Under the pieces are notes generated by a model. That model saw only the letters and a program-made list of their open reading frames with translations. It did no database searches and had not been told where the DNA came from. From the NCBI GenBank assembly GCA_963699155.1, contig OY969414.1, positions 779,757-843,756 on the forward strand: DNA of 64,000 bases, in the 5' to 3' direction. The stretch comes from an uncultured Chlamydiales bacterium (lineage in GTDB: Bacteria > Chlamydiota > Chlamydiia > Chlamydiales > JAAKFR01). Positions 13,290-43,546 of the stretch are shown piece after piece (within the stretch, counting starts at the first letter, position 1; the number at the start of each line of letters is the position of its first letter). The position numbers and the translations under genes are program-made.

Positions 13290-14249
13290 ATGTTCCAGGA
13301 TCTTTTAGTCAAACAGAAGCAGCATCTCGATACCTACTTCGATCAGATCGATAGTGCCAGTTGTGAAGCACTTGTCGATGCCATTTTAGCCTGCCAAGGG
13401 GTTCTCTATTTTACCGGGATCGGTAAGAGCGGTTTCGTCGCTCAAAAAATTGCCGCCACAATGCTCTCGACAGGGACCAAAGCCTTCTTTCTGCCACCGA
13501 TCGATGCGCTCCATGGTGATCTCGGCATGGTCGCTAAAAAAGATCTCGTCCTGATTTTGAGTAAGAGCGGCGAAACTGAGGAGCTTCTCCAGCTTCTGCC
13601 CTCGATTCGCAATAAAGGGGCAGCCATCGTCGCCATTACCTCAGAAAAGGGGAGCCGCCTGGCTAAGGGGGCCGATCGGACGGTCATTCTTCCTTGCGAA
13701 AACGAACTCTGCCCTTTCGATCTCGCACCGACCACCTCGACCGAAGTGCAACTGCTCTTTGGAGATGCTCTGGCGATTGCCTTGATGGAAAAGAGAGGTT
13801 TCAGTCTCGCCCAGTTTGCAGAGAACCATCCGGCAGGCCGCATCGGCAGGCGAAGCGCTCTCAAAGTGCGTGATCTGATGCTCGACGAGGAGCGCACACC
13901 TCTCTGTCTCTCCGACGATCGTTTAGAGGAAATTCTGGTCGATTTTTCGAGCAAGCGGTGCGGCTGCATGATCGTCATCGATAGCGACAAAAGACTGAAG
14001 GGCATTTTTACCGATGGCGACTTGCGACGCGCCCTCCAGGCAAAGGGGGAAATGGTCCTCCAACAACATGTAGGGGTACTAATGACCCAAACGCCGAAAT
14101 CGATTTCTGTGGATGCCGCTGCCTGGGATGCTTTGAAGCTGATGGAATCAGATCAAAAGCATCCTGTCATGGTTCTCCCCGTTCTCGATGATGAGGAGGC
14201 TGTCGTCGGCATCATCAAGATGCACGATCTGATCCAAGCTGGTCTTTGA
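13290..14249 (+). CDS. kdsD: Arabinose-5-phosphate isomerase (SIS + CBS)
   Basis: GIGKSG, HGDLG, APTTST, TDGDLRR. Confidence 0.92.
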   Translation: MFQDLLVKQKQHLDTYFDQIDSASCEALVDAILACQGVLYFTGIGKSGFVAQKIAATMLSTGTKAFFLPPIDALHGDLGMVAKKDLVLILSKSGETEELLQLLPSIRNKGAAIVAITSEKGSRLAKGADRTVILPCENELCPFDLAPTTSTEVQLLFGDALAIALMEKRGFSLAQFAENHPAGRIGRRSALKVRDLMLDEERTPLCLSDDRLEEILVDFSSKRCGCMIVIDSDKRLKGIFTDGDLRRALQAKGEMVLQQHVGVLMTQTPKSISVDAAAWDALKLMESDQKHPVMVLPVLDDEEAVVGIIKMHDLIQAGL

Positions 14250-14838
14250 GTGACGCACCACCCCATGCAAGCTGGTCTTTGATTTCCTGACTTGTTGCTT
14301 CTCTGATTTCCTTCCATGTTGCTTCTGTAAAGTAAGGCATGAAAAGATCACAACCCTCAAACTGCTGCTGGCTATGAGCCATGAAGGCGGCACCATCAAA
14401 ATGGGGCTGCAGGACTTTGATTTTTTCCCGACTCTGCTTCTTTAGCCAGATCCCGATGCCATAGAGATCCTCTTTCTCCAAATAATCCATCTTCTCCAGG
14501 CAGGTTAGAGGAATCTGCATCAAAGGTTTGCCATTTCTTTTGAAAGTCAGCGACTCTGCATCGACTTGCAACAGGTGGGGATGGAGCTGCAAGCGCGAGA
14601 GCTGGCGGTAGGGCCATAATCCGAGCGCAATCAACGCCATCCCTGTCAGAAAAAGGGGAATTCCGACGATTTTCAGAAGAGAAAGGGGCAAAAATGTCCC
14701 TCCAATAATGAGCAGGAGTGCCCCAGCTCCACCGAGAATGGCCCCCCGTTTGAGTGAATGATTTAGGAGCTGAGAGCGGATGGCGCTGCGATAGATTTCT
14801 CTTTCCGTGAGACGATCCATGCAAATAGGATATTCCAT
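14215..14838 (-). CDS. Hypothetical membrane protein
   Basis: 207-aa ORF, two TM segments. Confidence 0.65.
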   Translation of the reverse strand: MEYPICMDRLTEREIYRSAIRSQLLNHSLKRGAILGGAGALLLIIGGTFLPLSLLKIVGIPLFLTGMALIALGLWPYRQLSRLQLHPHLLQVDAESLTFKRNGKPLMQIPLTCLEKMDYLEKEDLYGIGIWLKKQSREKIKVLQPHFDGAAFMAHSQQQFEGCDLFMPYFTEATWKEIREATSQEIKDQLAWGGASLKDQLGSDRAS

Positions 14839-15530
14839 ACACTATAACAAAAGATACGGAAGAATGAGAGCGAGGAAGCAAAACTGGCCTCGATCACCTC
14901 ATCGCCTTTCCCCTCTAAAATCCATTTTAAACGGGCTATATTGAAGAAGAAGAGTCCTTTTTCAATAGTTGATTCCGTGACACTACCCTCCTTCGCCCAT
15001 TCCTTGACGAGATAGCGGTGCCATCCTCGAAGGAGCTTTTCGCGGCTGTTTCCACCCTCACTGTCGACATAATGGTCCAAAACATAGTTCTCGGAAGGAA
15101 AGAGAGTCTCTTTTTTAAGTATAGGCTGCTGAAAATAGGCGTAGCCCACAACCAGCATGGGCAGAATCCAAACAGTTTTGCTTGCCCCTTCGATCTGAAA
15201 GAGCAGGAGAAAGGAGATGAGGATGGAGAAAAAGAGCCAGGCGAGGGCAAACGGGGGAGTCGCACTCAAAAAATGGCTCCCTAACGCTTTCCAGAAGGAA
15301 GGGACAGTTTTCTGAAGGGCTACCGAATAGCCCTCTAAAATGAGCCGTTGGTCACTGGGAGAGAGCTGTTGAAACAACTCATTTTTTTCATGCACCATCT
15401 CATAGAGAGCGAGCTGCGATTTATAGGCTACGATTGCTTTGACATAGGGTTGAAGCAACAGCCAAAATAAAAAAGAAAATGCCAAACAAAGATGGCAGAT
15501 GATTAAAATTTTTTTCTTGCGAGACATCAT
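14763..15530 (-). CDS. Hypothetical membrane protein
   Basis: 255-aa ORF with several TM segments. Confidence 0.65.
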   Translation of the reverse strand: MMSRKKKILIICHLCLAFSFLFWLLLQPYVKAIVAYKSQLALYEMVHEKNELFQQLSPSDQRLILEGYSVALQKTVPSFWKALGSHFLSATPPFALAWLFFSILISFLLLFQIEGASKTVWILPMLVVGYAYFQQPILKKETLFPSENYVLDHYVDSEGGNSREKLLRGWHRYLVKEWAKEGSVTESTIEKGLFFFNIARLKWILEGKGDEVIEASFASSLSFFRIFCYSVWNILFAWIVSRKEKSIAAPSALSS

Positions 15531-15558
15531 TTAACGACACTTCTATAATTTATTCCCT

Positions 15559-16419
15559 ATGCGTATAAAGAGAAACTTATTTTTCTTAGTTATCTTTGGT
15601 TTATTGAGTTGGTTGGCCATTTATTCATATAACCATGTGACCGATGGTTTCAGTATCTATCAGATGAGCTCCTCTCTGCCTCCCTGCCCACAATTTGAGG
15701 TGGCATTGACTCATGAGAAAAAAGAGAGTCTCCAACAGGTTTTAGATCAGCCCTTCCGTTACATGGGTAAAGGATGCCAGTTTTATGTCTTTTCCAGCGC
15801 TGATAATCACTATGTGATCAAATTTCTTAAGCAGAAACATCTCAGGCAGTTTGAATGGCTGCAGCGCCTTCCCATGCCCCATCCGTGGCGTAAGCTCGCT
15901 GACCAAAAAATAGAGAGGCGCAAGGAGCGGGTAGAACGTCTCTTTTCTAGCTGCAAATTGGCTTATGAGAAGATGGCAGAAGAGACGGGGCTTCTCTATG
16001 TCCATCTCAACCAGATACCTGCATTAGAAAAAGAGATCCTGCTTATCGATAAGTTGGGTCTCAACCATCATGTGGCGATCGACGATTATGAATTTGTGAT
16101 TCAGAAAAAAGCAGTACCCGTTAAAGAGGCGTTGGCCGATCTGACACCCGAAGAGGTGGCTCACAAAATCGAAGAGCTGGCCCACCTCGTATTAGCCCGC
16201 TGTCAAAAAGGGATTCGAGATCGAGACCGCTCCTTTGTCCAGAATGTGGCCTTTTCTGCCAGCGAAGGGAGAGCTATTTTTACCGATGTGGGTCAATTTT
16301 ATGAAGACCCAACTATCCTCTTAGAGGAAGAACAGGCAAAAGATTTAGCGAAGCGTCTCTCTAATCTCGGCTACTGGATGGGCCGCCATTTTCCCGATTT
16401 AGCCCAGACGGTTCCATGA
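15559..16419 (+). CDS. Membrane-anchored protein-kinase-like protein
   Basis: N-terminal TM; GKGCQFYVF, YVIK, DRD..N, TDVG resemble kinase subdomains. Confidence 0.6.
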   Translation: MRIKRNLFFLVIFGLLSWLAIYSYNHVTDGFSIYQMSSSLPPCPQFEVALTHEKKESLQQVLDQPFRYMGKGCQFYVFSSADNHYVIKFLKQKHLRQFEWLQRLPMPHPWRKLADQKIERRKERVERLFSSCKLAYEKMAEETGLLYVHLNQIPALEKEILLIDKLGLNHHVAIDDYEFVIQKKAVPVKEALADLTPEEVAHKIEELAHLVLARCQKGIRDRDRSFVQNVAFSASEGRAIFTDVGQFYEDPTILLEEEQAKDLAKRLSNLGYWMGRHFPDLAQTVP

Positions 16420-18392
16420 TCAATAGAGCTTCCGAATGTCACCTTTCCTACTGCTTAAGCCCACCTCGAGAAAGTTGTATCATGGCCACAACGATCACTC
16501 TCATTGCGCTTGCGGGCATTTCCACACTCACTTTTTGTCTACTGGGCCATTTTCAACTGATCTCGGGTATTAATACCCTTTCCCAGACCGTTTTAGCATG
16601 CTCCAGTGGGGGATTGGCGGTCGTGGCTTTAGTGATGAGTGCAGTGAGTGCGCTGAAGGAGAAGGAGCCTATCCTTCCAGAGATTCACGATCCTGCCACT
16701 CTCAAAGCCACTTTGGACCAGCTCTGTACAGGGATGATCGAGGCCTTAGAAGCCGAAGATCCGATGGATACGATCCATCAATTGGCTGAAGAGATTCCTT
16801 TAGAACTTTTGGAAAAGGCTGTTCAAACGGCCTTCAATCACAAAAGCAGCGCACAAAAGCTCGCACAAAGCATGATAGGACAGGCACAATTTTTTGTGGC
16901 AGCAAGACATCCTCCCACACCGAGCTGTCAAGCCAGGATGAGAGATCTCGGTGATAAGATCTTGGGCCTCTTTGATAACCTCTTTTGGGCATTCGGGATT
17001 TCAGAGTTCTTTAAACCTTCCGAAAACGACCAACATGCCGATGCCAAATTCCAAAAAATTGTAATGCTCATCAGCTTCTTTACCTTGATGACATCGACAA
17101 TCCTTCCTCTTCTCGGTATTACGACGGGATCCTCCGTCGTTGCAGGGATTCTCATCTTTTTCTGCGTCATGAGCCTGATCTGGCCAAAGATCCGCCCCTT
17201 TTCCACCCATCTTCCCGAAGCGGAAAATTGGTCGAAACAGGTCCGTATGGGCGAAATGATAGCTCCCTTAGGTCGTAAAGAGGCCGTCGACAGAATCCGG
17301 GATGCTCTCAATCAGCGCCAGCCGGTCATGATTGTCGGCCCCTCTGGAATCGGTAAAACCATAGCTGTACAAGCACTGACAGCTGCCATTGAGCAGGGCA
17401 AAAGTCCTGAACTGGCTGGCAAAGAGGTGATCTACTTTAATATGGCCGACCTCATCTCACACTATGATTACTCGGGCTACCGCAACACCATTTTAAAACG
17501 GATCTCTGCAGCCGGCATCCACAATTATATCCCTGTCATCGATAACCTCCTGAAGGCCTATAAGCCTCATGAGGGTACCGATGTCGGAAGCCAGCTGCGC
17601 ACCTTTCTCGATGACAAACCCGAAAATAGTTTTAAGTTTTTCATTGGGATCGCCGAATTGGAAGAATATGCGGAATGGGCCGCTACTTCTGAAGCTTCTG
17701 AAGGACGCCGTTTCGATAATGTCGTTTATGTCAGAGATACGAGCATAGAAAATACGCTCGCCATTCTTCGCCGCCACATTTTACAAGAAGCGCCCTACGC
17801 ATTGGTGGAAAAGGGGGCATTAGAATTTCTCTATGAGTCGACTAAAGACAAGGGCCCTCTTCCCTTATTCCCTCTCCAGATCCTCAAACGATGCATCACA
17901 AAGATCTCACAAACTCAAAAGACGCCACTTGCACAGAAGAGAGATCACGAAGAAAGTAAGCTCTTAGAAGCCCACTCTGAGGGTGCTGTGAGCGGTGATG
18001 AAGTGGTCTCTACGAAGATCGATACGTGTGAAAATCATTTAAAAGTGGTGCAAGAAAAGTTTGATCCGCAGAAGAAAGATGCCGACCTTGTAGCAGCAGC
18101 TCGAAATGCTTTAATCAAAGTACGTGAAGCCAAATTCCAGGCCGTCTTAGATACAGTATCCTCAGAAGAGAATCAAAACAAGCTGACAGAATTCTTGCTG
18201 CTGAAATATTTCTTCGAGAGGCATCTCGAAGAGGCCATCCGAACTACAAGTCAAAAAATTCCCGGCTTTCGCGCCACGATCAATCGTGAGCTGGTCCAGG
18301 AGGCTCTCAAGGAATATGAGGAAAGCCATCGAGAGCAGATCCAAGCTGTGCAAGAAGGTCAAAAACATAAAAAAGACCGTTTAAAAACATGA
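16416..18392 (+). CDS. Membrane-anchored ClpB-NBD1-like AAA+ protein, degenerate Walker B
   Basis: Two TM hairpins; GPSGIGKT; VIDN; RRF; coiled-coil tail. Confidence 0.75.
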   Translation: MINRASECHLSYCLSPPRESCIMATTITLIALAGISTLTFCLLGHFQLISGINTLSQTVLACSSGGLAVVALVMSAVSALKEKEPILPEIHDPATLKATLDQLCTGMIEALEAEDPMDTIHQLAEEIPLELLEKAVQTAFNHKSSAQKLAQSMIGQAQFFVAARHPPTPSCQARMRDLGDKILGLFDNLFWAFGISEFFKPSENDQHADAKFQKIVMLISFFTLMTSTILPLLGITTGSSVVAGILIFFCVMSLIWPKIRPFSTHLPEAENWSKQVRMGEMIAPLGRKEAVDRIRDALNQRQPVMIVGPSGIGKTIAVQALTAAIEQGKSPELAGKEVIYFNMADLISHYDYSGYRNTILKRISAAGIHNYIPVIDNLLKAYKPHEGTDVGSQLRTFLDDKPENSFKFFIGIAELEEYAEWAATSEASEGRRFDNVVYVRDTSIENTLAILRRHILQEAPYALVEKGALEFLYESTKDKGPLPLFPLQILKRCITKISQTQKTPLAQKRDHEESKLLEAHSEGAVSGDEVVSTKIDTCENHLKVVQEKFDPQKKDADLVAAARNALIKVREAKFQAVLDTVSSEENQNKLTEFLLLKYFFERHLEEAIRTTSQKIPGFRATINRELVQEALKEYEESHREQIQAVQEGQKHKKDRLKT

Positions 18393-20332
18393 TCACACTT
18401 CCACTCAACTATACTTCAGAGCATTGGACCGTTTCTGGAAATCAACAGCAGGCAAAAGAAGCGCAGGTATTAATTGTTTCAGGGCTCGCGGCTGCAGCGA
18501 TTGTACTCGTAACCTATTCGCTGCTCTCCTATTTTCAGGTCGTGAACAGCATCAATGCCATTGCTCAGTGGAGTTTGTTGGGAGCTGGGGGAGCTTCCGT
18601 TGTCGCTGCTGCCCTCCTTTCGTTTTTCTCCCCCAAAGAGCTACCCTCGGTTTCCATCACCAGCCCGGAAGAATTGAAGATTCACTTAGAAAAACTGTGT
18701 CGAGAAATGGTCCAGGGGGAGGATCCTCTCGAAGCGATGCAGAAGATTATGGAAAGCCTTCCTCTAGACATGTTGGAGAAAGCTGTGGGAAGTCAAGGCG
18801 CTCTGCAATTGGCTCGAGATATGGTTGTGGAGTCTGAGTTCTATTTTAATGCCAATGAGACATTCTCTCAGACTCTTCAGGCAAAGATGAAAAACCTCCT
18901 CTATACCCTCATCAGCATCATCGATAGTACCTTAGCGATTTTGGGAATCGCCGATTTCTGTAAGCCCTCTGAAAGTAGCTTTCATGCCGATTTCAAATTC
19001 CAGAGGATCATGATGATTATCAGCCTCTTTACTCTTCTAACAGCCACTTTACTTCCGCTTCTGGGTGTCACCTCAGGGGCCTCCATCGTCGGAGGAGTCA
19101 TGCTTCTAATTGCTTTGCTCAGCTTGATTTGGCCAAAGATCCGTCCCTCACTCGGTGAGCTGCCGCGTGGAGAAAATTGGTCGGAGCGGGTGCAGAAAGG
19201 CAAAATCTGGAATCCTGGAATGAGAGCGGAGCTGGTGCAAGAGATCTACCACTATTTGCGTGCGCATCGGCATGTCATGTTCATCGGACCATCGGGCATC
19301 GGTAAAACTAATCTCGCGCAGGAGATCACTCAAGGGATCGAGCAGGGAGAGTTGCCTGAGTTTGCAGGCAAAAAAGTTATCTATTTTAATATGGCTGAGC
19401 TGGCCGCCAGCGCAGATATCTTTAGCAATGAGAACATGATCTTAAAAAGGATCGAAGAGGCTGTAGGCGATCGAGCAGAGGACTATGTTTTAGTTTTTGA
19501 TGAAGCCCATGCCGCTTTCGCTGACCTCACATTTGGAAATAAGTTTAAAACCTTCCTCGACAAAATGCCTTACGTCCTCTGCATGACGACAGCTGAGGAG
19601 TATATGAAGTTTATTTTTATCGATCAGGCAGCAGGCGATCGCCGATTTGTGAAGCTTAATGTTGGTAGTACAACACCCGAAGAAACTGAGGCGATCGTCA
19701 GCTATGACATTTTAAGAAAGGCTCCTGCAACACTCATGGAAGAGGGTGCTCTCGAGCATCTCATCGAACAGACAAAGGAGTTTCCACAGCCTCTTTCGGC
19801 TCTCACCTTTGCTTCCCAAGCCCTCATGGAGCTCAATCTGCCCCATTACACTCCAAAGATGAAAGAACTCCAGCAGACGAAAAAAGAGCGCCTTCTCATG
19901 GGAGCGAGAGGGGTAGTTCTAGGAGCTGCTTCTCAAACAGGGGACCAAAAACGATTTCAGACAGTTGAAGGGTCAAAAAAAACAATTGCGCAACTGGACC
20001 AAGAGGTGGCTCTCGAAGAAGAAAAGCTGCATCAACTAAAAAAACTCAAAGAAGAGCTGACCGCTGTGAGGAAAACAAAATACCAGACTGTACGCTCTAT
20101 CGACCAATCAGGACCCTCAGAAGTCGAACTCAACCAACTGCTCCTTCTGAAATATCTTCTCGAACCCAAACTCGAAGAGGCGATCAAAAAAATCTCTGCC
20201 GATATGAAAGTGGATTCACTATTCAATCGTGAGATCATTGATAAAGTCATCGCCGCCGAAAAAGAGAACCAAGAAAAAAGAAAAGTGGCTATGGAGCAGG
20301 CAAAAAAGGCATCCGAAGCGCGCCAGGTTTAA
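18389..20332 (+). CDS. Membrane-anchored ClpB-NBD1-like AAA+ ATPase (paralogue)
   Basis: Same architecture; GPSGIGKT; VFDEAH; RRF. Confidence 0.78.
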   Translation: MITLPLNYTSEHWTVSGNQQQAKEAQVLIVSGLAAAAIVLVTYSLLSYFQVVNSINAIAQWSLLGAGGASVVAAALLSFFSPKELPSVSITSPEELKIHLEKLCREMVQGEDPLEAMQKIMESLPLDMLEKAVGSQGALQLARDMVVESEFYFNANETFSQTLQAKMKNLLYTLISIIDSTLAILGIADFCKPSESSFHADFKFQRIMMIISLFTLLTATLLPLLGVTSGASIVGGVMLLIALLSLIWPKIRPSLGELPRGENWSERVQKGKIWNPGMRAELVQEIYHYLRAHRHVMFIGPSGIGKTNLAQEITQGIEQGELPEFAGKKVIYFNMAELAASADIFSNENMILKRIEEAVGDRAEDYVLVFDEAHAAFADLTFGNKFKTFLDKMPYVLCMTTAEEYMKFIFIDQAAGDRRFVKLNVGSTTPEETEAIVSYDILRKAPATLMEEGALEHLIEQTKEFPQPLSALTFASQALMELNLPHYTPKMKELQQTKKERLLMGARGVVLGAASQTGDQKRFQTVEGSKKTIAQLDQEVALEEEKLHQLKKLKEELTAVRKTKYQTVRSIDQSGPSEVELNQLLLLKYLLEPKLEEAIKKISADMKVDSLFNREIIDKVIAAEKENQEKRKVAMEQAKKASEARQV

Positions 20333-21408
20333 CTTTGTTGAGGTTCGGGAATCGTCTTTCGTAGAAAGATCATTTCTCGTTTAAACTGCACAAACCTTTC
20401 ATGACATAGCTCCTCCTCTGTTCTACCAAGCGATGCAATCATACAAGCCTCATAGGCTATTTCCGTTTTCTTAATTTCATAAGACAATCTTTCAACGTGT
20501 CTATGGCGCTCGGTTGGGGAGAGTGTGGCAAATTGAAGTCCAAAAGAGGCTTGGCGAGTCATTTCCATTTGGAGATCGAGCTGCAATGGAAAAGCATATT
20601 GAGAGGGATCGATCAGCTGCATTGTAGAGAGCGCTTCTTCAGACAGTTCACAAGCTTCATGATCATTTCCCAGAATATGCTCATGGAGTGCAGCTGCTCT
20701 CAAACAATTAGCTGAGGTAAACAAATTCTCTGTGAAGGGAGCATGGATGTAATCGCGAGGTGTTAATCCCTTAAAGCGATGCTTTCCTGGAGATAGCTTT
20801 AAAAAAGCAGTGGCAGCGGATTGGAGGAGAGAGCTTGCGACAGCGTTGCCTCTCTGAGTCAATTTTTTAAAGGCTTCAGGGGAAGATTCTCTGGGCGCCT
20901 TATCCAAAATTCCGCCCTCATAAATTAGCTTGATCCCTTTTTGAAGCCAGGTGAGTTGTTCGAACGGGCTTTCAGCCAATTCCGCAGCATCTACGGCAGC
21001 TTCTGCTTCATTGATCTGTTCTCTCCATAATGTATAACGTGTTCTCCAGTTCTTGCCAGTGCTCTCTATAGCTGATTGAGCTCTGCGAGCAGAGAGTGCT
21101 CGGACAATCGGATCTTCATCATCCCCTCTGTAGGATTGTGAGGGTAGGGATCCTTTTTCGAGATAATTCCGAAGATCGCCTGGGGAAATTGATAGTTGAC
21201 GGCAGGTCCCATTCGCGATTCTTGGGGCAGTCGGGGAATAACTCTTTTGAGGCATTGCGGCGACGAGTGTGGCACCCAGGGGAATGAGGATTATCAAAAT
21301 AATACAAGCGATAGCGAGTGCCTTTGTCGCATCAAATCGAAAGGAGGCTCTTGGAGGTGGCTCTGTTGCAGCAATAGGAGGATTGTCTCGGGAAACTGGA
21401 GCTGCCAT
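20329..21408 (-). CDS. Hypothetical protein with N-terminal TM helix
   Basis: 359-aa ORF; stop overlaps convergent gene stop (TTAA). Confidence 0.6.
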   Translation of the reverse strand: MAAPVSRDNPPIAATEPPPRASFRFDATKALAIACIILIILIPLGATLVAAMPQKSYSPTAPRIANGTCRQLSISPGDLRNYLEKGSLPSQSYRGDDEDPIVRALSARRAQSAIESTGKNWRTRYTLWREQINEAEAAVDAAELAESPFEQLTWLQKGIKLIYEGGILDKAPRESSPEAFKKLTQRGNAVASSLLQSAATAFLKLSPGKHRFKGLTPRDYIHAPFTENLFTSANCLRAAALHEHILGNDHEACELSEEALSTMQLIDPSQYAFPLQLDLQMEMTRQASFGLQFATLSPTERHRHVERLSYEIKKTEIAYEACMIASLGRTEEELCHERFVQFKREMIFLRKTIPEPQQS

Positions 21409-21424: not shown

Positions 21425-22462
21425 CTATTTTTTTCGGGAATTTTTCTTGGGAGGCGGAGCTTCCGCTTTGACTTTGCTTTTAGGGGCAGCTTTCTTTTTG
21501 ACTGGCTCGTCCATTTCTTCATCATCATCCTCGTCTTCGTCTTTTTCACTGAAGGAGGGGATGGTAAACTCTCCTTCGAGGCCGAGCTGCATGGAGAGTT
21601 TGCGGAGGGAGGCAAATTTTTCGGAAAGGGCTTGCAGTTGACTTTCTGAATCGGAGCGGGTGGTGCCACGTAAGTGGGCCAAAAATTCCTCTTCGGTATC
21701 AAATTTTTCAGAGAAGGTGATTGAAGAGGCGGAGGTAATTTCGGGGAGGTAGAGGAAGCGGCGCACTGTGGGTGTTACCTGAGTGAAGATATCGCTTGTC
21801 ACCTGGGACTCAATTTCAATCTTGGCCACCTGCTTGGGCGGACGACCACGTTTAGGTCGGGGATTCAGTGCTTCGTTGGAATAGTAGGTTTCCGCCTTCT
21901 TCACAAGAGCGGAGCGTGCCTGGGCGAGATCTTTGGTAACTTTGGGTTCAAAGAGATGAATTTTGAGCTGCTCGATGGTAATGCGTGGAAGATCGAGATC
22001 CTCTTCAAAGACAAATTTAAAGCTATTATTGCGGAGCCATTCGATGATGCGCACACGTGAACGTTCTTGATAATATTGCTGCCACTTTTCTAGCTCAGTT
22101 TCGTTATCGTAGATGAATTCGAGAAACTGCTCACGGGCATCTTTAGAGCCGATGATATCGAGAAGTTTTTCTTTGGTATCGATGTCATAAACTTTTTCGT
22201 TGACAAACCCCTCCATGATCTTTTTGGTCTCATAGAAAGTCAATTTTGAGATGAGGGCATAGCGACCCGCCTGGGCTTTCAACTCTTCTTCCAGCTTTTC
22301 GATCTCCTCGACCTCTTTATCGAGGTCGACGAAGACAATAAAACCTTCGACGCGGTCTAGATAGAAATCGCGCTCATCATTCGATTTGGAGAAGGCATCC
22401 ATGAGTCGGAGGGCTCGAAGAATGAGGGGATTTTGTGCTTGAGGCTGAGAAGATTGTTTCAT
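21425..22462 (-). CDS. UPF0158 family protein (CT429-like)
   Basis: QNPLILRALRLMDAFSKS..ERDFYLDR; RPKRGRPPK. Confidence 0.88.
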   Translation of the reverse strand: MKQSSQPQAQNPLILRALRLMDAFSKSNDERDFYLDRVEGFIVFVDLDKEVEEIEKLEEELKAQAGRYALISKLTFYETKKIMEGFVNEKVYDIDTKEKLLDIIGSKDAREQFLEFIYDNETELEKWQQYYQERSRVRIIEWLRNNSFKFVFEEDLDLPRITIEQLKIHLFEPKVTKDLAQARSALVKKAETYYSNEALNPRPKRGRPPKQVAKIEIESQVTSDIFTQVTPTVRRFLYLPEITSASSITFSEKFDTEEEFLAHLRGTTRSDSESQLQALSEKFASLRKLSMQLGLEGEFTIPSFSEKDEDEDDDEEMDEPVKKKAAPKSKVKAEAPPPKKNSRKK

Positions 22463-23211
22463 GCTCCAGCCATTATAGGTGTTTCTTCCTTTAAAACCAA
22501 GATGGGACCTTCGAGAACCACTTCTGACCAATCGTCATTAAAAGAAACTTTTAAAGTCTCACCTGAACGGACGCCTACCCGAATCGGCGAGGGAAGAGCA
22601 TGCACTTTGTGCGCAATCAGAGCAGCAGCTGTGGCACCAGTGCCGCAAGCTTGCGTCTCTCTCTCCACACCCCGCTCATAGGTGCGTAGAGCGATGGAGC
22701 CATCTTCCTGCAAAGCGACAAAATTAATATTGGCTCCAGCTGGGGCAAAAAGGGGAGAAAAACGGAGAGCCCTGCCGATTTCATTGACTGCGATGGTGTC
22801 TACGCGGTCAATAAAATAGACAGCATGAGGAACACCGGTGTTCACAAAATGGAGATCATAGGGAAGATTCAAGCGGAGTTGGCTAGGTGGAGCTAAGCGG
22901 ATGGCGACGCCTTTCTCCGTCAACCAGCCCTCCTGTAGGCCCGCCAGCGTCTCGATCAAGTAGGTCGATTTTTTCACACCGAGATAGTGGATCAGACAAC
23001 GGATTCCATTGCCACACATCTCCGCTTCACTTCCATCGGAGTTAAAGATCCGCATTTTGGCATCTGCGTGAGTGGAATCTTCCAAAAGGATCAGGCCATC
23101 AACCCCTTCATGCTGACACAAAGAGGCAGCAGTTTGCTCATCAAATCGATGTGAGCGATTGTCACCTACAAGGAAAGTATTGCCTGCGCCTGAATAACGT
23201 ACCCACCTCAT
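22459..23211 (-). CDS. dapF: Diaminopimelate epimerase
   Basis: [27 protein letters not shown]. Confidence 0.95.
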
Positions 23212-23807
23212 TTGAGATCTTTGGCTGTAGAGACAATCTTATCGAGAAGGCCGAACTTTAACGCTTCCTGAGCCGACATCCAGGTGTCTCGGTCGAGCGC
23301 TTTTTCGATCTCTGGTTTGGTGCGTCCCGTATGCTCGACGTAGAGATCGACCAGAAGGGAGTGGGTTTTGAGTATCTCTTTGGCTTGGATGTCGAGATCG
23401 GTTGCTTGTCCCATGACCTGACCTGAAATGGAGGGCTGGTGGATCATGAACCTGGAGTGGGGTGTGGCGTAACGCTTGCCTGGGCTGGCACATAAGCTCA
23501 AAACAGAGCCCATCGAAGCTGCCAAGCCACTGACGCAGGTGATGATTGGCGAGGAGATCATCTTCACCTGGTCCCAAATGGAGAAACCAGCGTCTATCGA
23601 TCCTCCTGGGCTGTTGATGATAAAAATGATCGGCTTTCCAGGATTGGAGAGCTCGAGATACCACAGTTTCCGAATGGCCTCATAGGCTGTTTCATTATCG
23701 ACCTGCGTAAAGAAGAAGAGCCGCCGTGATTGGAGAATCGTATGGTCGATCTTATCGTCTAAGCGTTCGAAATCCTCTTTCTCTATTTCCTTTTCCACTT
23801 TCGCCAT
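23208..23807 (-). CDS. clpP: Clp protease proteolytic subunit
   Basis: INSPGGS, AASMGS, MIHQP; AGAGG upstream. Confidence 0.95.
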
Positions 23808-23813
23808 GTTCAA

Positions 23814-24066
23814 AACCTCTTTCAATCTAAAATTAAATCAGGGTAGTAGAGTTTCACAACCTCTTTCAATCTACAATTAACTCAGGGTAGTAGAGTTTCA
23901 CAACCTCTTTCAATCTACAATTAACTCAGGGTAGTAGAGTTTCACAACCTCTTTCAATCTATAATTAACTCAGGGTAGTAGAGTTTCACAACCTCTTTCA
24001 ATCTATAATTAACTCAGGGTAGTAGAGTTTCACAACCTCTTTCAATCTACAATTAACTCAGGGTAG
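23814..24066. repeat. 44-bp tandem repeat, 5 full + 1 partial copy
   Basis: Unit aacctctttcaatctacaattaactcagggtagtagagtttcac starting 23814, 23858, 23902, 23946, 23990, 24034. Confidence 0.97.
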
Positions 24067-26909: not shown

Positions 26910-27260
26910 GTGGGGGGAAGGGCAATCGCTGCCTCGCTGATCTCGATCAGTGAGGGAGAGGAAAGTCTGGACTTCGTAGAAGAGGATACCAGCGAAAGGC
27001 TGGGGGCCGCAAGGCTACGGAAAGTACAACAGAAAACATACCGCTGGCATTGCCAGAGAGGCTGAAAATCCTAGCTTAAGGAGCTGGGCGCACTTGAGGA
27101 GACTCAAGGCGGTGTAAACCCTATCCGAAGCAAGACGAAAAGAGAATATGGTTCTTCGCCATCTCTTTGAAGAGTCGCTTGAGAACTGCGGTGACGCCGT
27201 TCCTAGATGAATGATTGCAGCCCGTCGTGGCTAACAGAATCCGGCTTATTCTCCCCCCAC
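26910..27260 (+). ncRNA. rnpB: RNase P RNA
   Basis: GAGGAAAGTC and AACAGAATCCGGCTTA conserved regions; gtggggggaa/ttctccccccac P1 pairing. Confidence 0.95.
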
Positions 27261-27291
27261 TTTTTTTAAAGAAAAACTAGAGGAAATTTTC

Positions 27292-40167: not shown

Positions 40168-41041
40168 CTAAACAGAAAGGATAGGGATGAAAAAATCTTT
40201 CAGGAAAAGTATGACTTCTTCCAAGGTGACATGCTCTTCCCCGATATTCCTGAGAAAAAAATCCCAGCGTTCCATGATTTTAGGGGATTTGTAAAATGCT
40301 TCTGAAAATGCATGTGGGTTCTGATCTACGATGGTTTTCCTATTTGAAAACACTTTGAGAAGAATGGGTTTCATTTCTTGTGGTCGAATTTGGAACTGCT
40401 GGATCATTTTCCAAATATCGTAAAAATCTTTCATGCGGGTATTTGCTAGCCCTAGTTTGATGATTGCGTCCATTTTTTCTGCGATCATCGTCTCTGGTGT
40501 ATACCCCTTCAACTGAGGGCATGGAAACTCCAATAACGTGGGATAGTTCAAATCCACAGGTTGAGGAAATATTTTGTCGTTAAATCCGATGTCGATTCTC
40601 AAAGGAAGTTTGGTCGATTCTCAAAGGAAGTTTGGCTGAAAAAAGTTGTGCAAAAAATCGAGCAGACAGTCCAATGTATTCCGTTTCAATTTGAGATTCA
40701 ATGACTTTTATTTCTTTTGTATCAAATTTAATACCATCTGGTTGCACAGAAAAATCACAAATTTCTCTAAGGGATCGTCTTATATTATCGTTTGAGTTAC
40801 CAACTTTAGCAAGTAGATCAATATCCAATGTGGTGCGATGTGTTTCTGGGTTCCATACTTTAAGCATCAGTCCCCCTTTCAGAAAAAAAGTCTCTTTGTG
40901 TGGAGAAAGACTGAGCCGGTATAAAAACCGTTCCATCGCATAATAACGGAGAATTTCCTGAGTAGGGCGCTTTTTCTTTAAAGCAATATTCTTCAATTTT
41001 GTGTAAACAGACTCTTCCAGATTCTTTTTCTCACTATTCAC
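40168..41041 (-). pseudogene. AbiEii nucleotidyltransferase toxin, frameshifted
   Basis: LKGG, RTTLDIDL, AEK, RMKDFYD; split by 22-bp duplication at 40591-40634. Confidence 0.88.
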
Positions 41042-41656
41042 TCAACCACTCACTATTGTTTCCATGATTGGGGCTAAAATTCTCACAACTCTGCATATTT
41101 TTGCAAAATCGTACAGCTTGTCGAGGTTTGTGCGTCCCTGTCGCCAATACTCTTTGAAAGCCTCTAAAACAACATCCATTCCGATCTTTTGTCTGAACTT
41201 CAAACAGTCAGCCAATGTCTTTTCGATGCTATAAATCCTAACTTGGCACCCATCGATAGAGATAGTTTCGATGCCCTCGTGATAGGAAGCATTACTGTAT
41301 AGAAAACATCTTAGAGGAGGATATTCTATTTTGGGGATTCTGGATGCCTTTGGAAGAGCAATATCCACAGCATGAGGAATTTGAGTAGTCAAATTATAGT
41401 ATGAAAGAGCGGAGATCAAACAAATCACACCTTTAGGAATCTTTTTTGCGACAATTACCAAATCAGGTTCCGAAAAATCAGGTAATGAAACTAAACGAAA
41501 TACTCCTCTTCCAAGAGATTCAATGATCCTCTCATCCCTCATTCTGTAAAGATCTCTCGGATGAATGCCTAATTGTAGAGCCTCCGAAGTTCGTAATGTA
41601 CCACCCTTCTGTCTAAAAATATCTATGCGCTTCTCTTCTCTGGATCCACTTTCCAT
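41042..41656 (-). CDS. AbiEi antitoxin (type IV TA)
   Basis: N-terminal wHTH (GRGVFRL), CLISAL, EKTLAD; directly upstream of AbiEii. Confidence 0.85.
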   Translation of the reverse strand: MESGSREEKRIDIFRQKGGTLRTSEALQLGIHPRDLYRMRDERIIESLGRGVFRLVSLPDFSEPDLVIVAKKIPKGVICLISALSYYNLTTQIPHAVDIALPKASRIPKIEYPPLRCFLYSNASYHEGIETISIDGCQVRIYSIEKTLADCLKFRQKIGMDVVLEAFKEYWRQGRTNLDKLYDFAKICRVVRILAPIMETIVSG

Positions 41657-41868
41657 ATAAAAATCTAATTAAGATTGCTGGATAAAAATGCTGGTTGTTT
41701 TTCGTTTCTAAAGGCAATTCTATCCACATTGTCTAAAAAAATCTAGGGAATCTTCATCTTCATGATCCACTGCACATTCGCGAAAAAAATCAAAAATTTA
41801 ATAATATATTAATAATTATCAATTATAATATTTAATAAAAAATTAAATATGAGGTAACTATGTCAATT

Positions 41869-43125
41869 TGGTAACACCTGGGAAAAGCTGGACCCCTCAA
41901 AATTAGAACACTTAAGTTGCATGGGAACCGTCTCTTTTGAAAGGCTAAAGGAAAAAATTTTCGGGATTAAGAGAATAACGGGATTATAAGACTTTATTGA
42001 AAAATTGAGCCCGTATAAGCTGTCTTATCTTGTAAACTTAAGAGAGGTCATATGGGGCTCAGCACATATAGTATGATGATGAAAGGAACACCGCAAGAAT
42101 ATCTTTTTCAATTTAAGAAGCAGGTTGTTAAAAGTGCTCAAGCAGAAGGAATTAAGCCTGCGATGAGAAGGTGGGGCTTAGGTAGAAATACCATCCGACG
42201 TTGGTTGAGAAACTTTGAAGCGGAAGGGAATAAAGGTCTTTATGACAAAAGAAAAGGCCCTAACCATATTCCCCACAAGATTTCCCCAGAGCTAGAGAAG
42301 AAAATTATCCAAGCCCGCCACGAAGTGCCTTGTTATGGCCCCAGAAGATTGAAGTATTTTTTCAATATAGAGTGCTCATTAGATGCTATCTACAGGGTGC
42401 TTAAACAAAACGGTCTCACTGTCAAGAGACGCAAAAAATATCAAAAGAAGAACGATTTGAGAGAGGCTAAAGCAAAGTATCAGGCTTTTGGTCATATGCA
42501 AATGGATTTAAAGTATTTAAGGGATATTCCTAACTACTGGGGATAACTTAAACCTTTAAAGCTTCCACGTTTTCAATACACTGTGAGAGATACCAAATCA
42601 GGTATGCTCTTTCTAGGCTTTTCGGATGAGCTTTCAGAACTTAATGCGAGAACGATGATCGATTATGTGTTAAGACGCTTACGCTCACAAATGCCCGATA
42701 AAAAGATCATTGTGCAAACAGATAATGGTGTGGAATTTGGAGGAACAACAAGACATTTTGAGAAATCTCCCTTTTGCCAAGCTGTGCAGGCCCATGGCGG
42801 AGAGCATCTCTTCATTCCTCCGAAGCTGTGCAATGCAAATGGCGATGTGGAAAGTCTCCACAACCTTATTGAGACAGAGTTTTTTGATATTGCTAAATTT
42901 GAATCTAGGGAAGATTTTATCCGAAAAGCTGAGAGCTACCGACTCTTTTTCAATTTAGAAAGGCCTAATAGCTATAAAGGAGGCAAAACACCCTGGCTGA
43001 TTGCCCAGCAGGACTGGGCAGATAATGATCTAGCTAGTTATGCTGCAATAATAGAAACCGTCGATTTAGATAAAATGACCGTAACTGGTTATTCTAAGCG
43101 GGGTCCAGGTCTACCCAATTCTCCC
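41869..43125 (+). mobile_element. IS element (IS481-like DDE transposase) with 15-bp flanking direct repeat
   Basis: gtaactatgtcaatt at 41854-41868 and 43126-43140; imperfect subterminal IR tggg....ctggacccc. Confidence 0.85.
42052..43125 (+). pseudogene. Transposase with in-frame TAA
   Basis: HTH + QMD, QTDNG, VES; stop at 42544-42546, same frame continues. Confidence 0.85.
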
Positions 43126-43131
43126 GTAACT

Positions 43132-43546
43132 ATGTCAATTCAAGGAAGCAGTGAAAAAAAATCGGATTACATCTCTCTCGCGGGAGACAAAGAGTTCGAG
43201 TTGAACTTACAAGGTAAGTGCCGTCTCGATAGTTTGATGTCTATGTCACAGATGGCTACCGTGGCTGCGATTGGCTTTTGTATTGGGTATTTTAGCTGTA
43301 TACTGCCATACGGGGTTCGGAACTCCTTCGCCCCTTCCAGCTCATCCCACATTTATTGACCAAATGATATTGTCAGTAAAGGAGATACTTCAAAATCCTT
43401 TGGCAATCGTGGGTATTGTCGGCAGTAGCGTTTTTGGTGGGGTTGCTCTTGCAGGAGGCTATAAGATGCTGAAAAACCTTACCGAAGATGAAAGAAAGGA
43501 GTATTTAGAAAATTATCCTCCCCAGGAAGATCTACATCCTATCTAA
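43132..43546 (+). pseudogene. IS-disrupted small membrane protein gene, probably also frameshifted
   Basis: ATG lies in the IS direct repeat; two hydrophobic segments in overlapping frames. Confidence 0.45.

Follow-up and report, generated by a model that had tools for sequence, protein, structure and literature searches.

Two adjacent genes in a 64-kb stretch of contig OY969414.1, from an uncultured Chlamydiales bacterium, encode proteins that look like ClpB cut down to its first nucleotide-binding domain (NBD1) and its M-domain, with a helical region and membrane hairpins in the place of the Clp N-domain. We call these proteins AAA-A (A) and AAA-B (B), the gene upstream of them and its product K, and the whole analysed stretch, which is part of one single-contig genome of 2.40 Mb, the window. 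Judged by its motifs, B looks like an active ATPase, and A looks hydrolysis-dead yet maintained, not decaying. Their sequences place both in a large, undescribed and fast-evolving family that is Chlamydiota-only within what was searched. We consider it probable, if well short of certain, that they form a motor of the Hsp100 type, a single ring set against a membrane that threads or extracts polypeptides; A and B would probably mix in this ring, with B hydrolysing ATP and A in a structural or regulatory role.

A and B are paralogues, 34% identical over 638 columns (E 5e-94). Kyte-Doolittle hydropathy gave four membrane-length segments in each protein, that is, two hairpins with short loops (hairpin 1 as in Table 1; hairpin 2 at residues 214-260 of A and 206-252 of B), and each hairpin has the bilobed hydrophobic form of inclusion membrane (Inc) proteins. 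Common to A, B and their relatives is hairpin 2 together with its flanks (FGI.DFFKPSE..HAD.KFQ ... SLIWPKIRP). Hairpin 1 is limited to the sublineage of the window; a typical family member has a soluble N-terminal region of about 100-190 residues, followed by hairpin 2, NBD1 and the tail. An earlier note on this DNA had described an N-terminal hairpin, a conserved second transmembrane (TM) hairpin and tethering to a membrane. Hydropathy and alignment agree with it for both proteins, and the predicted tethering of family members is supported by the hairpins and the conservation of hairpin 2. Each protein has exactly one G....GK[ST] Walker A motif and stops where NBD1 and the post-M helix of ClpB stop; the second nucleotide-binding domain (NBD2) is absent from both, which bears out the single ClpA/B-NBD1-like module that had been proposed. 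No Pfam match to Clp_N was found in A or B at E up to 1, the region in question being made of the TM hairpins and a helical linker. About 9 residues lie between the last TM segment (TM4, ending near B248) and the start of the NBD1 homology (B257).

The placement of the AAA module in the Clp clade, also made in the earlier note, was upheld by profile comparisons. The best NCBIfam matches of A and B were ClpB, ClpA, ClpG and ClpK at 25-39 bits, with scores of 36-39 bits against equivalog cut-offs of 993-1417 (39 against 1417 for ClpB). All 39 PDB matches of B in a phmmer search were Hsp100-type chains. A profile built from 47 family sequences matched ClpB in the PDB at 8e-42 over residues 159-512 of the T. 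thermophilus protein, which comprise NBD1 and the M-domain; the top 44 distinct sequences were all Hsp100-type (42 named Clp or Hsp, two otherwise named, 8xon_S and 2p65_A), and the next family was Midasin at 3e-8. Alignment with the genome's own ClpB by hhalign gave a probability of 99.6 and paired family columns 237-612 with ClpB 187-570, a span that covers NBD1, the M-domain and the helix returning to NBD1. As to the coiled-coil tail proposed in the earlier note, the profile alignments traverse the ClpB M-domain at low bias, and the heptad signal there is weak and crude. Like ClpB and Hsp104, the family has in NBD1 Walker A, the signature G(D/E).PE..GK, a DE.H Walker B, a TT sensor 1 and the arginines of RRF, and its putative coiled-coil segment aligns with the entire M-domain and the helix that follows; unlike them, it has neither Clp_N nor NBD2 and carries a helical domain and one or two TM hairpins before NBD1. 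The aromatic residue of LLLKY falls opposite the Tyr of ClpB M-domain motif 2 in both alignments (PDB and hhalign). The motif 2 region contacts Hsp70, which for LLLKY is a lead only. Canonical ClpB-like and ClpC-like genes are present elsewhere in the same genome. The ESM Atlas returned generic AAA/Clp clusters for B at 0.87-0.88 and added nothing. A known defence system was not indicated, PADLOC having given P-loop-level matches only.

The two proteins differ at the catalytic motifs. B has the consensus residues of the family here: K306 in Walker A, D371/E372/H374 in Walker B, T400/T401 in sensor 1, and R418/R419. Where the Walker B of B is VFDEAH, A has VIDNLL, and the motif alignment agrees with the earlier reading that A is without the catalytic Glu but keeps Walker A and RRF: GPSGIGKT and RRF are present in both proteins, and A has D376-N377..L379 where the family has DE.H. 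To this we add the loss of sensor 1 in A, in which the family TT is replaced by A413-E414. Conservation of 85% or more across the other 45 family sequences defines a set of 54 columns. A keeps 43 of them and B 42, these being the two lowest-but-one values of the family. Of the 13 changes in A, seven sit between Walker B and sensor 1, and the 12 changes in B are scattered. Since the changes in A cluster in this interval and 43 of the 54 columns are kept, A is likely to be specifically hydrolysis-dead and not generally eroded.

The surroundings of the two genes bear on their history. We examined eight more genomes from the same family, which, like all the genomes sampled, are not mutually independent. 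All eight have the backbone icd, kpsF, mem207, mem255, K, UPF0158, dapF and clpP without an AAA gene, although for L079 neither UPF0158 nor dapF was detected in the stretch; in G116 an AAA gene lies on a different contig. Because the K-containing backbone stands without an AAA gene in these eight, the AAA genes are best explained as an insertion. The K-UPF0158 interval varies among the four genomes of genus g1. Here it holds A, B and an orphan open reading frame (ORF) of 359 amino acids (aa). In G147 it holds an opposite-strand ORF (371 aa, no Pfam match) and then one B-type gene split by an IS630-like insertion sequence (IS) with DDE_3; the gene (L034, 4834-5949 and 7706-8799) is cut after residue ~483, and the element consists of a helix-turn-helix (HTH) ORF and a DDE_3 ORF. 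In G301 a single AAA gene lies 129 bases after K, and in G302 a single AAA gene of 742 aa directly adjoins mem255, with no K orthologue in the genome (best K match 35% identical). Within the genus, identity to the window genome is 75-89% for icd, 81-84% for UPF0158, 76-79% for clpP, 70-78% for kpsF (53% in G301 over a broken match) and 53-67% for K. It is 33-49% for the AAA gene, which is thus evolving faster than every flanking gene at the locus.

Quick maximum-likelihood trees united A, the G301 gene and the clade of B in one group (support 93-97) and placed the G302 gene elsewhere. The approximately unbiased (AU) test rejected A and B as exclusive sisters (log-likelihood difference 25.8, p 0.006), with the caveats that the group was named after the tree had been seen and that the branch of A is long. 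This rejection indicates that the A/B split is older than the spread of the B clade, and A is, on the evidence of the trees and motifs, an old lineage kept intact and neither a fresh nor a rotting duplicate. The idea that A is a pseudogene decaying after duplication is in our view barely credible. The losses of the Walker B Glu and His and of sensor 1 would fit it, as would the longest end branch in the clade (1.48, against 0.91 for B) and the fact that no A orthologue was found. Yet the frame of 658 codons is intact, A keeps no fewer conserved columns than B, and it diverged before the B clade spread, too long ago for an unconstrained ORF to stay open; moreover, three species of another genus have similar dead variants at loci that share neighbour genes. 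A ratio of nonsynonymous to synonymous changes (dN/dS) could not be computed, synonymous sites being saturated (pS 0.76-0.85 in seven of seven pairs).

These dead variants were found among 73 distinct family sequences, seven of which have a non-acidic residue at the position of the Walker B Glu. One is A and the other six belong to genus g53: DQ in G276 and G129, DG in G088, DH in G244, and DN both in G121 and in a further copy from G276. Predicted Walker-B-dead copies have thus arisen repeatedly elsewhere in the family. The two DQ genes and the DG gene, from three species, occupy loci with neighbour genes in common; the DQ genes share 45% identity, and the DG gene is 30-31% identical to either of them. 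Because their loci share neighbours, the dead Walker B state appears to have persisted through speciation.

How A and B might work together can be pictured from their architecture. Substrates enter Hsp100 rings such as ClpB and Hsp104 at the N-terminal face. Since the first helix of NBD1 follows only about 9 residues after the last TM segment, this substrate-entry face of a hexameric ring would be pressed to the membrane, and the ring would pull polypeptide out of, or through, the membrane toward the ATPase side. A threading or pulling motor is suggested by the conserved aromatic residue of the pore loop; such a residue is present in the pore-loop region in most of 68 rows. B would supply ATP hydrolysis, and A would bind ATP and offer its arginine fingers to the neighbour subunit without hydrolysis, the two being made together and mixed in one ring. 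An A/B hetero-oligomer is plausible from the predicted translational coupling of the genes and from the retention in A of the arginines that act in trans. The geometry would be that of FtsH and Msp1, built from an Hsp100 module. Msp1/ATAD1 and FtsH resemble the new family in having one or more TM segments directly N-terminal to a single AAA ring, with the entry face inferred to lie at the membrane. They differ in belonging to another AAA+ clade (classic-clade chains such as VCP and p97 reached only ~1e-7 to 1e-5 against the family profile), and the new family is without a protease domain and has a predicted M-domain-like coiled coil that those proteins lack. A further likeness concerns mixed rings of active and inactive subunits, which remain functional in Msp1: one report (PMC12793716) describes Msp1 rings of alternating wild-type and E193Q subunits in which ATP is still hydrolysed and, with some constructs, substrate is still extracted.

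Several points weigh against a mixed A/B motor at the membrane. Ring formation, the membrane-facing orientation and the A-B contact are drawn from homology, and alignment inside the coiled-coil regions is less reliable than in NBD1. Complementary degeneration of A and B was considered and rejected, the changed columns of the two proteins overlapping at 2 positions against ~2.9 expected by chance, with no statistical sign of it. The other three g1 genomes have a single AAA copy at the locus. Finally, in G129 (96% complete) and G244 (90% complete) the only family copy is Walker-B-degenerate and stands beside canonical Clp proteins; these lone copies argue against an obligatory active partner from the family, and dead copies can apparently work, or at least persist, without one. 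Some of these points favour separate action of the two proteins, B as an active homo-hexamer and A as a non-hydrolysing ATP-dependent binder (a trap or holdase) or as a cap or inhibitor of other rings. The DQ copy of G129 and the DH copy of G244, for which no active family paralogue was found, would be natural examples, and the age of the A/B split and the single copies of the other g1 genomes, one of them IS-disrupted (G147), point the same way. We nevertheless think separate action somewhat unlikely: the ATGA coupling of the A and B genes favours matched synthesis, and A keeps both arginines that act on the ATP site of a neighbour.

If the proposed motor is right, its interest lies in the use of the Hsp100 module. 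The known Hsp100 machines are soluble, have two rings and serve as disaggregases or as partners of proteases. A large natural family in which NBD1 and the M-domain alone are kept and fused to a conserved membrane hairpin would show that the module can also be a single-ring motor bound to a membrane. Its dead members would in addition be Walker-B 'trap' variants made by nature and open to study.

A word-indexed search for the family gave only 22 proteins, and a full hidden Markov model (HMM) scan of 1.84 billion representatives gave 1129 at E <=1e-30, the best 150 of which were all below 3e-118 and 339-743 aa long; at 50% identity the family comprises at least 150 clusters. Neither Pfam nor NCBIfam has a model for it, its members are publicly named only 'AAA family ATPase' or 'hypothetical protein', and no description of such a membrane-anchored ClpB-like protein was found in literature searches. 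Public records label the relatives Chlamydiales or Chlamydiota. A scan for the hairpin-2 pattern in genomes of 185,579 species confirmed 20 loci, 18 of them titled Chlamydiota (Parachlamydiaceae, Waddlia/Waddliaceae, Simkaniaceae, Rhabdochlamydia, others, and one metagenome-assembled genome titled Chlamydia trachomatis) and two 'uncultured bacterium'. No longer fused forms (relatives of at least 1134 aa) were found, which is weak evidence. A scan of metagenome contigs gave three loci among the matches listed, at 21-27% identity and over the P-loop only, and these were irrelevant to a K-AAA linkage. For P0004/P0029, P0006/P0031 and P0011/P0041, contigs of the same length are no more than a hint that the two members of each pair share one. 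Tandem duplication of the AAA gene seems to be recurrent, since a second tandem pair is present in G128, from another family of the phylum (L038, 2980-6789; 663 and 575 aa, the Walker B DE intact in both).

Within the phylum the distribution is patchy. B matched 58 of 300 sampled genomes at E <=1e-15, across many families, and none of the 29 genomes of family f3 (1.0-1.2 Mb, presumed Chlamydiaceae). Several genomes have two to four family matches, some copies are IS-interrupted, frameshifted or stop-containing, and no neighbour gene is conserved across AAA loci beyond within-genus synteny. For chlamydial biology this is a sizeable, fast-evolving and lineage-restricted gene family whose evolutionary pattern is like that of host-interaction genes.

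This pattern bears on whether the proteins reside in the inner membrane or in the inclusion membrane. The bilobed hairpins, phylum restriction, patchiness, turnover and fast change resemble host-interaction genes, and the conserved hairpin 2 with positive-inside flanks would fit an ordinary inner-membrane protein. It is possible, and we put it forward tentatively, that A and B are type-III-secreted Inc-like effectors that insert into the inclusion membrane and expose their ATPase to the host cytosol, where it would remodel or extract host or inclusion-membrane proteins; this would change the location and leave the motor mechanism the same. Both hairpins are bilobed with short loops, as in Incs, and the phylum restriction is shared with them. 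So is the fast evolution, the AAA genes being 33-49% identical within the genus against 70-89% for icd, kpsF, UPF0158 and clpP. The scattered occurrence, the multiple copies (up to four per genome), the disrupted copies and the lack of a conserved neighbour also agree with secreted effectors, as do the Ser/Asn/Pro/Ile-rich N-termini without a signal peptide that most members have, as judged by eye only. However, the hydrophobic domains of Incs are poorly conserved, in contrast to hairpin 2 and its flanks, which are strongly conserved in the new family; these flanks obey the positive-inside rule expected of a bacterial inner-membrane hairpin, and the hairpin is preceded by ~200 residues in most members. 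Literature searches found no Inc described with an AAA+ module.

A bolder form of the inclusion-membrane idea would make the family a self-contained translocation or extraction machine between host and pathogen, whose hairpins form a conduit or flank one. Its ring, which host Hsp70 might activate by way of the M-domain-like coil, would pull proteins out of the vacuole membrane, or across it, into the host cytosol, and dead paralogues such as A would tune the ring. The machine would be a fused, single-ring counterpart of the Plasmodium PTEX, which reportedly joins the Hsp100 motor HSP101 to the pore EXP2 at the vacuole membrane of the intracellular parasite. The likeness is that of an Hsp100 motor at a membrane, and HSP101 chains (6e10, 6e11) are among the PDB matches of the AAA family; PTEX differs in its two-ring HSP101 and separate pore proteins, whereas the new family fuses the membrane segment to a single ring. 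An export role is speculation, and we think such a machine distinctly improbable.

K had been described as kinase-like and as a possible regulator of the AAA pair. Searches of Pfam, NCBIfam and PDB sequences gave no match for K, and no kinase family of Pfam or NCBIfam matched it at E up to 1, as was the case with Pfam for 45 relatives. The AlphaFold2 model of K (pLDDT 96.4, pTM 0.90) has a bilobal protein-kinase fold (Foldseek, VIA), so the first part of the description stands. G72, K88, E142, D223, N229 and D243 are invariant or nearly so in 45 sequences; K88, D223, N229 and D243 are putative catalytic and metal-binding motifs of a kinase, assigned by sequence pattern and not by residue-level superposition. 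Between D223 and N229 there is one residue more than in the usual D-x4-N. Unlike the atypical kinases Rio2, Bud32/PRPK and AceK, K has no Pfam family and has an N-terminal membrane anchor (hydrophobic segment aa 3-25; anchor aa 6-25, with basic residues ahead). This arrangement suggests that the kinase domain would face away from the cytoplasm, on the side opposite the AAA domains if both are in the inner membrane.

The regulatory part of the description did not survive comparison with other genomes. The K family occurs in 219 of 300 genomes of the phylum, often as tandem arrays (at least eight K paralogues in other lineages), and the window genome has a second paralogue, 37% identical (G000:C1:1606826-1607527, L087). 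In family f15 the AAA gene is present in four of four genomes and K in none; in family f1 K is present in 16 of 17 and the AAA gene in five. Because these distributions differ, the K family is independent of the AAA family. A three-gene functional module in which K phosphorylates or otherwise regulates A/B is therefore very unlikely. Here the three genes are co-directional with ATGA overlaps, K adjoins an AAA gene in two further genomes of the genus, and the catalytic pattern of K is conserved. Against this, the backbone from kpsF through mem207, mem255 and K to UPF0158 does without an AAA gene in the eight other genomes, K and the AAA gene of G147 have an opposite-strand ORF between them, G302 has an AAA gene and no K orthologue, and the kinase domain may lie across the membrane from the AAA domains if both are in the inner membrane. 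Nor is the linkage of K to AAA genes, a check proposed with the earlier description, conserved: K was in the flanks of none of 29 other AAA loci, and in those of two of the 20 named loci from the hairpin-2 scan, both arranged as in G147 and G301 and maybe not independent of them. K is thus a real kinase-fold protein whose pairing with A/B is positional; it would be co-transcribed with A/B here only because the AAA genes inserted beside it. The adjacent kinase-fold gene is in this sense a false lead removed, K belonging to a separate conserved module beside kpsF. In this block (window 13290-16419), icd, kpsF and genes for membrane proteins of 207 and 255 aa are followed by the divergent K, as in all eight same-family genomes (L078-L085). 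The ESM Atlas placed K in unnamed Chlamydiota-only clusters, with weak leads to YrbL and WaaY (0.86-0.87) unconfirmed by Pfam. kpsF is the entry enzyme of the Kdo pathway, and its link to K together with these Atlas leads suggests that K may be an envelope-related small-molecule kinase.

The positions of the genes and of their parts are given in Table 1. K, A and B are co-directional and the ATGA is read at both junctions, just as had been noted. The start of K is 28 bases away from a gene of divergent orientation, and the stop of B overlaps that of a convergent ORF; because of this close packing, with the 28-base gap, the ATGA overlaps and the overlapping stops, the three genes most likely form a single transcript.

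Table 1. Positions in the window of K, AAA-A, AAA-B and their predicted parts
Feature	Position	Strand	Remarks
K	15559-16419	+	ORF, 286 aa
AAA-A (A)	16416-18392	+	ORF, 658 aa; degenerate catalytic motifs
AAA-B (B)	18389-20332	+	ORF, 647 aa; intact catalytic motifs
ATGA overlap, K stop / A start	16416-16419	+	
ATGA overlap, A stop / B start	18389-18392	+	
A hydrophobic hairpin 1 (aa 24-46, 55-80)	16485-16655	+	hydropathy
A hairpin 2 and interfacial flanks (aa 196-275: SEFFKPSE..HADAKFQ, two TM segments, IWPKIRP..LPEAENWS)	17001-17240	+	conservation, hydropathy
A NBD1-like module	17241-17930	+	Walker A GPSGIGKT aa 308-315; R431/R432
A degenerate Walker B IPVIDNLLK	17529-17555	+	Glu to Asn 377, His to Leu 379
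A degenerate sensor 1 FFIGIAELE	17637-17663	+	family TT to A413/E414
A C-terminal M-domain-like tail (aa 506-658)	17931-18389	+	
B hydrophobic hairpin 1 (aa 26-49, 61-81)	18464-18631	+	hydropathy
B hairpin 2 and flanks (aa 188-267)	18950-19189	+	conservation, hydropathy
B NBD1-like module	19190-19864	+	K306, pore-loop region AELAASADIFSNE, T400/T401, R418/R419
B Walker B VLVFDEAHA	19487-19513	+	within NBD1-like module
B C-terminal tail	19865-20329	+	LLLKY opposite ClpB ..LRY; aligns with ClpB M-domain and helix returning to NBD1

The convergent ORF that overlaps the stop of B is the 359-aa orphan (20329-21408, - strand). It has one hydrophobic segment, no Pfam or NCBIfam match and no counterpart in 28 other genomes of the same taxonomic family, and is an orphan of the same variable islet as A and B. 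After the islet come UPF0158 (Pfam E 7.6e-74) and then dapF and clpP homologues (21425-23825, - strand), the last two named by reading their translations. clpP is less than 3 kb from the ClpB-like pair but belongs to the backbone kept in genomes without the pair.

Elsewhere in the window, no tRNA genes were found, and a bacterial RNase P RNA of class A was detected at 26910-27264 (241 bits). In two soil-metagenome DNA runs, ten contig pieces of 151-180 bases were identical to the window, with zero variants. A low-GC islet at ~40168-43359 (GC 0.38-0.42) contains an AbiEii toxin gene split in two ORFs, an AbiEi antitoxin gene and an IS-like pair made of an HTH ORF and an ORF with an rve_3 integrase core.

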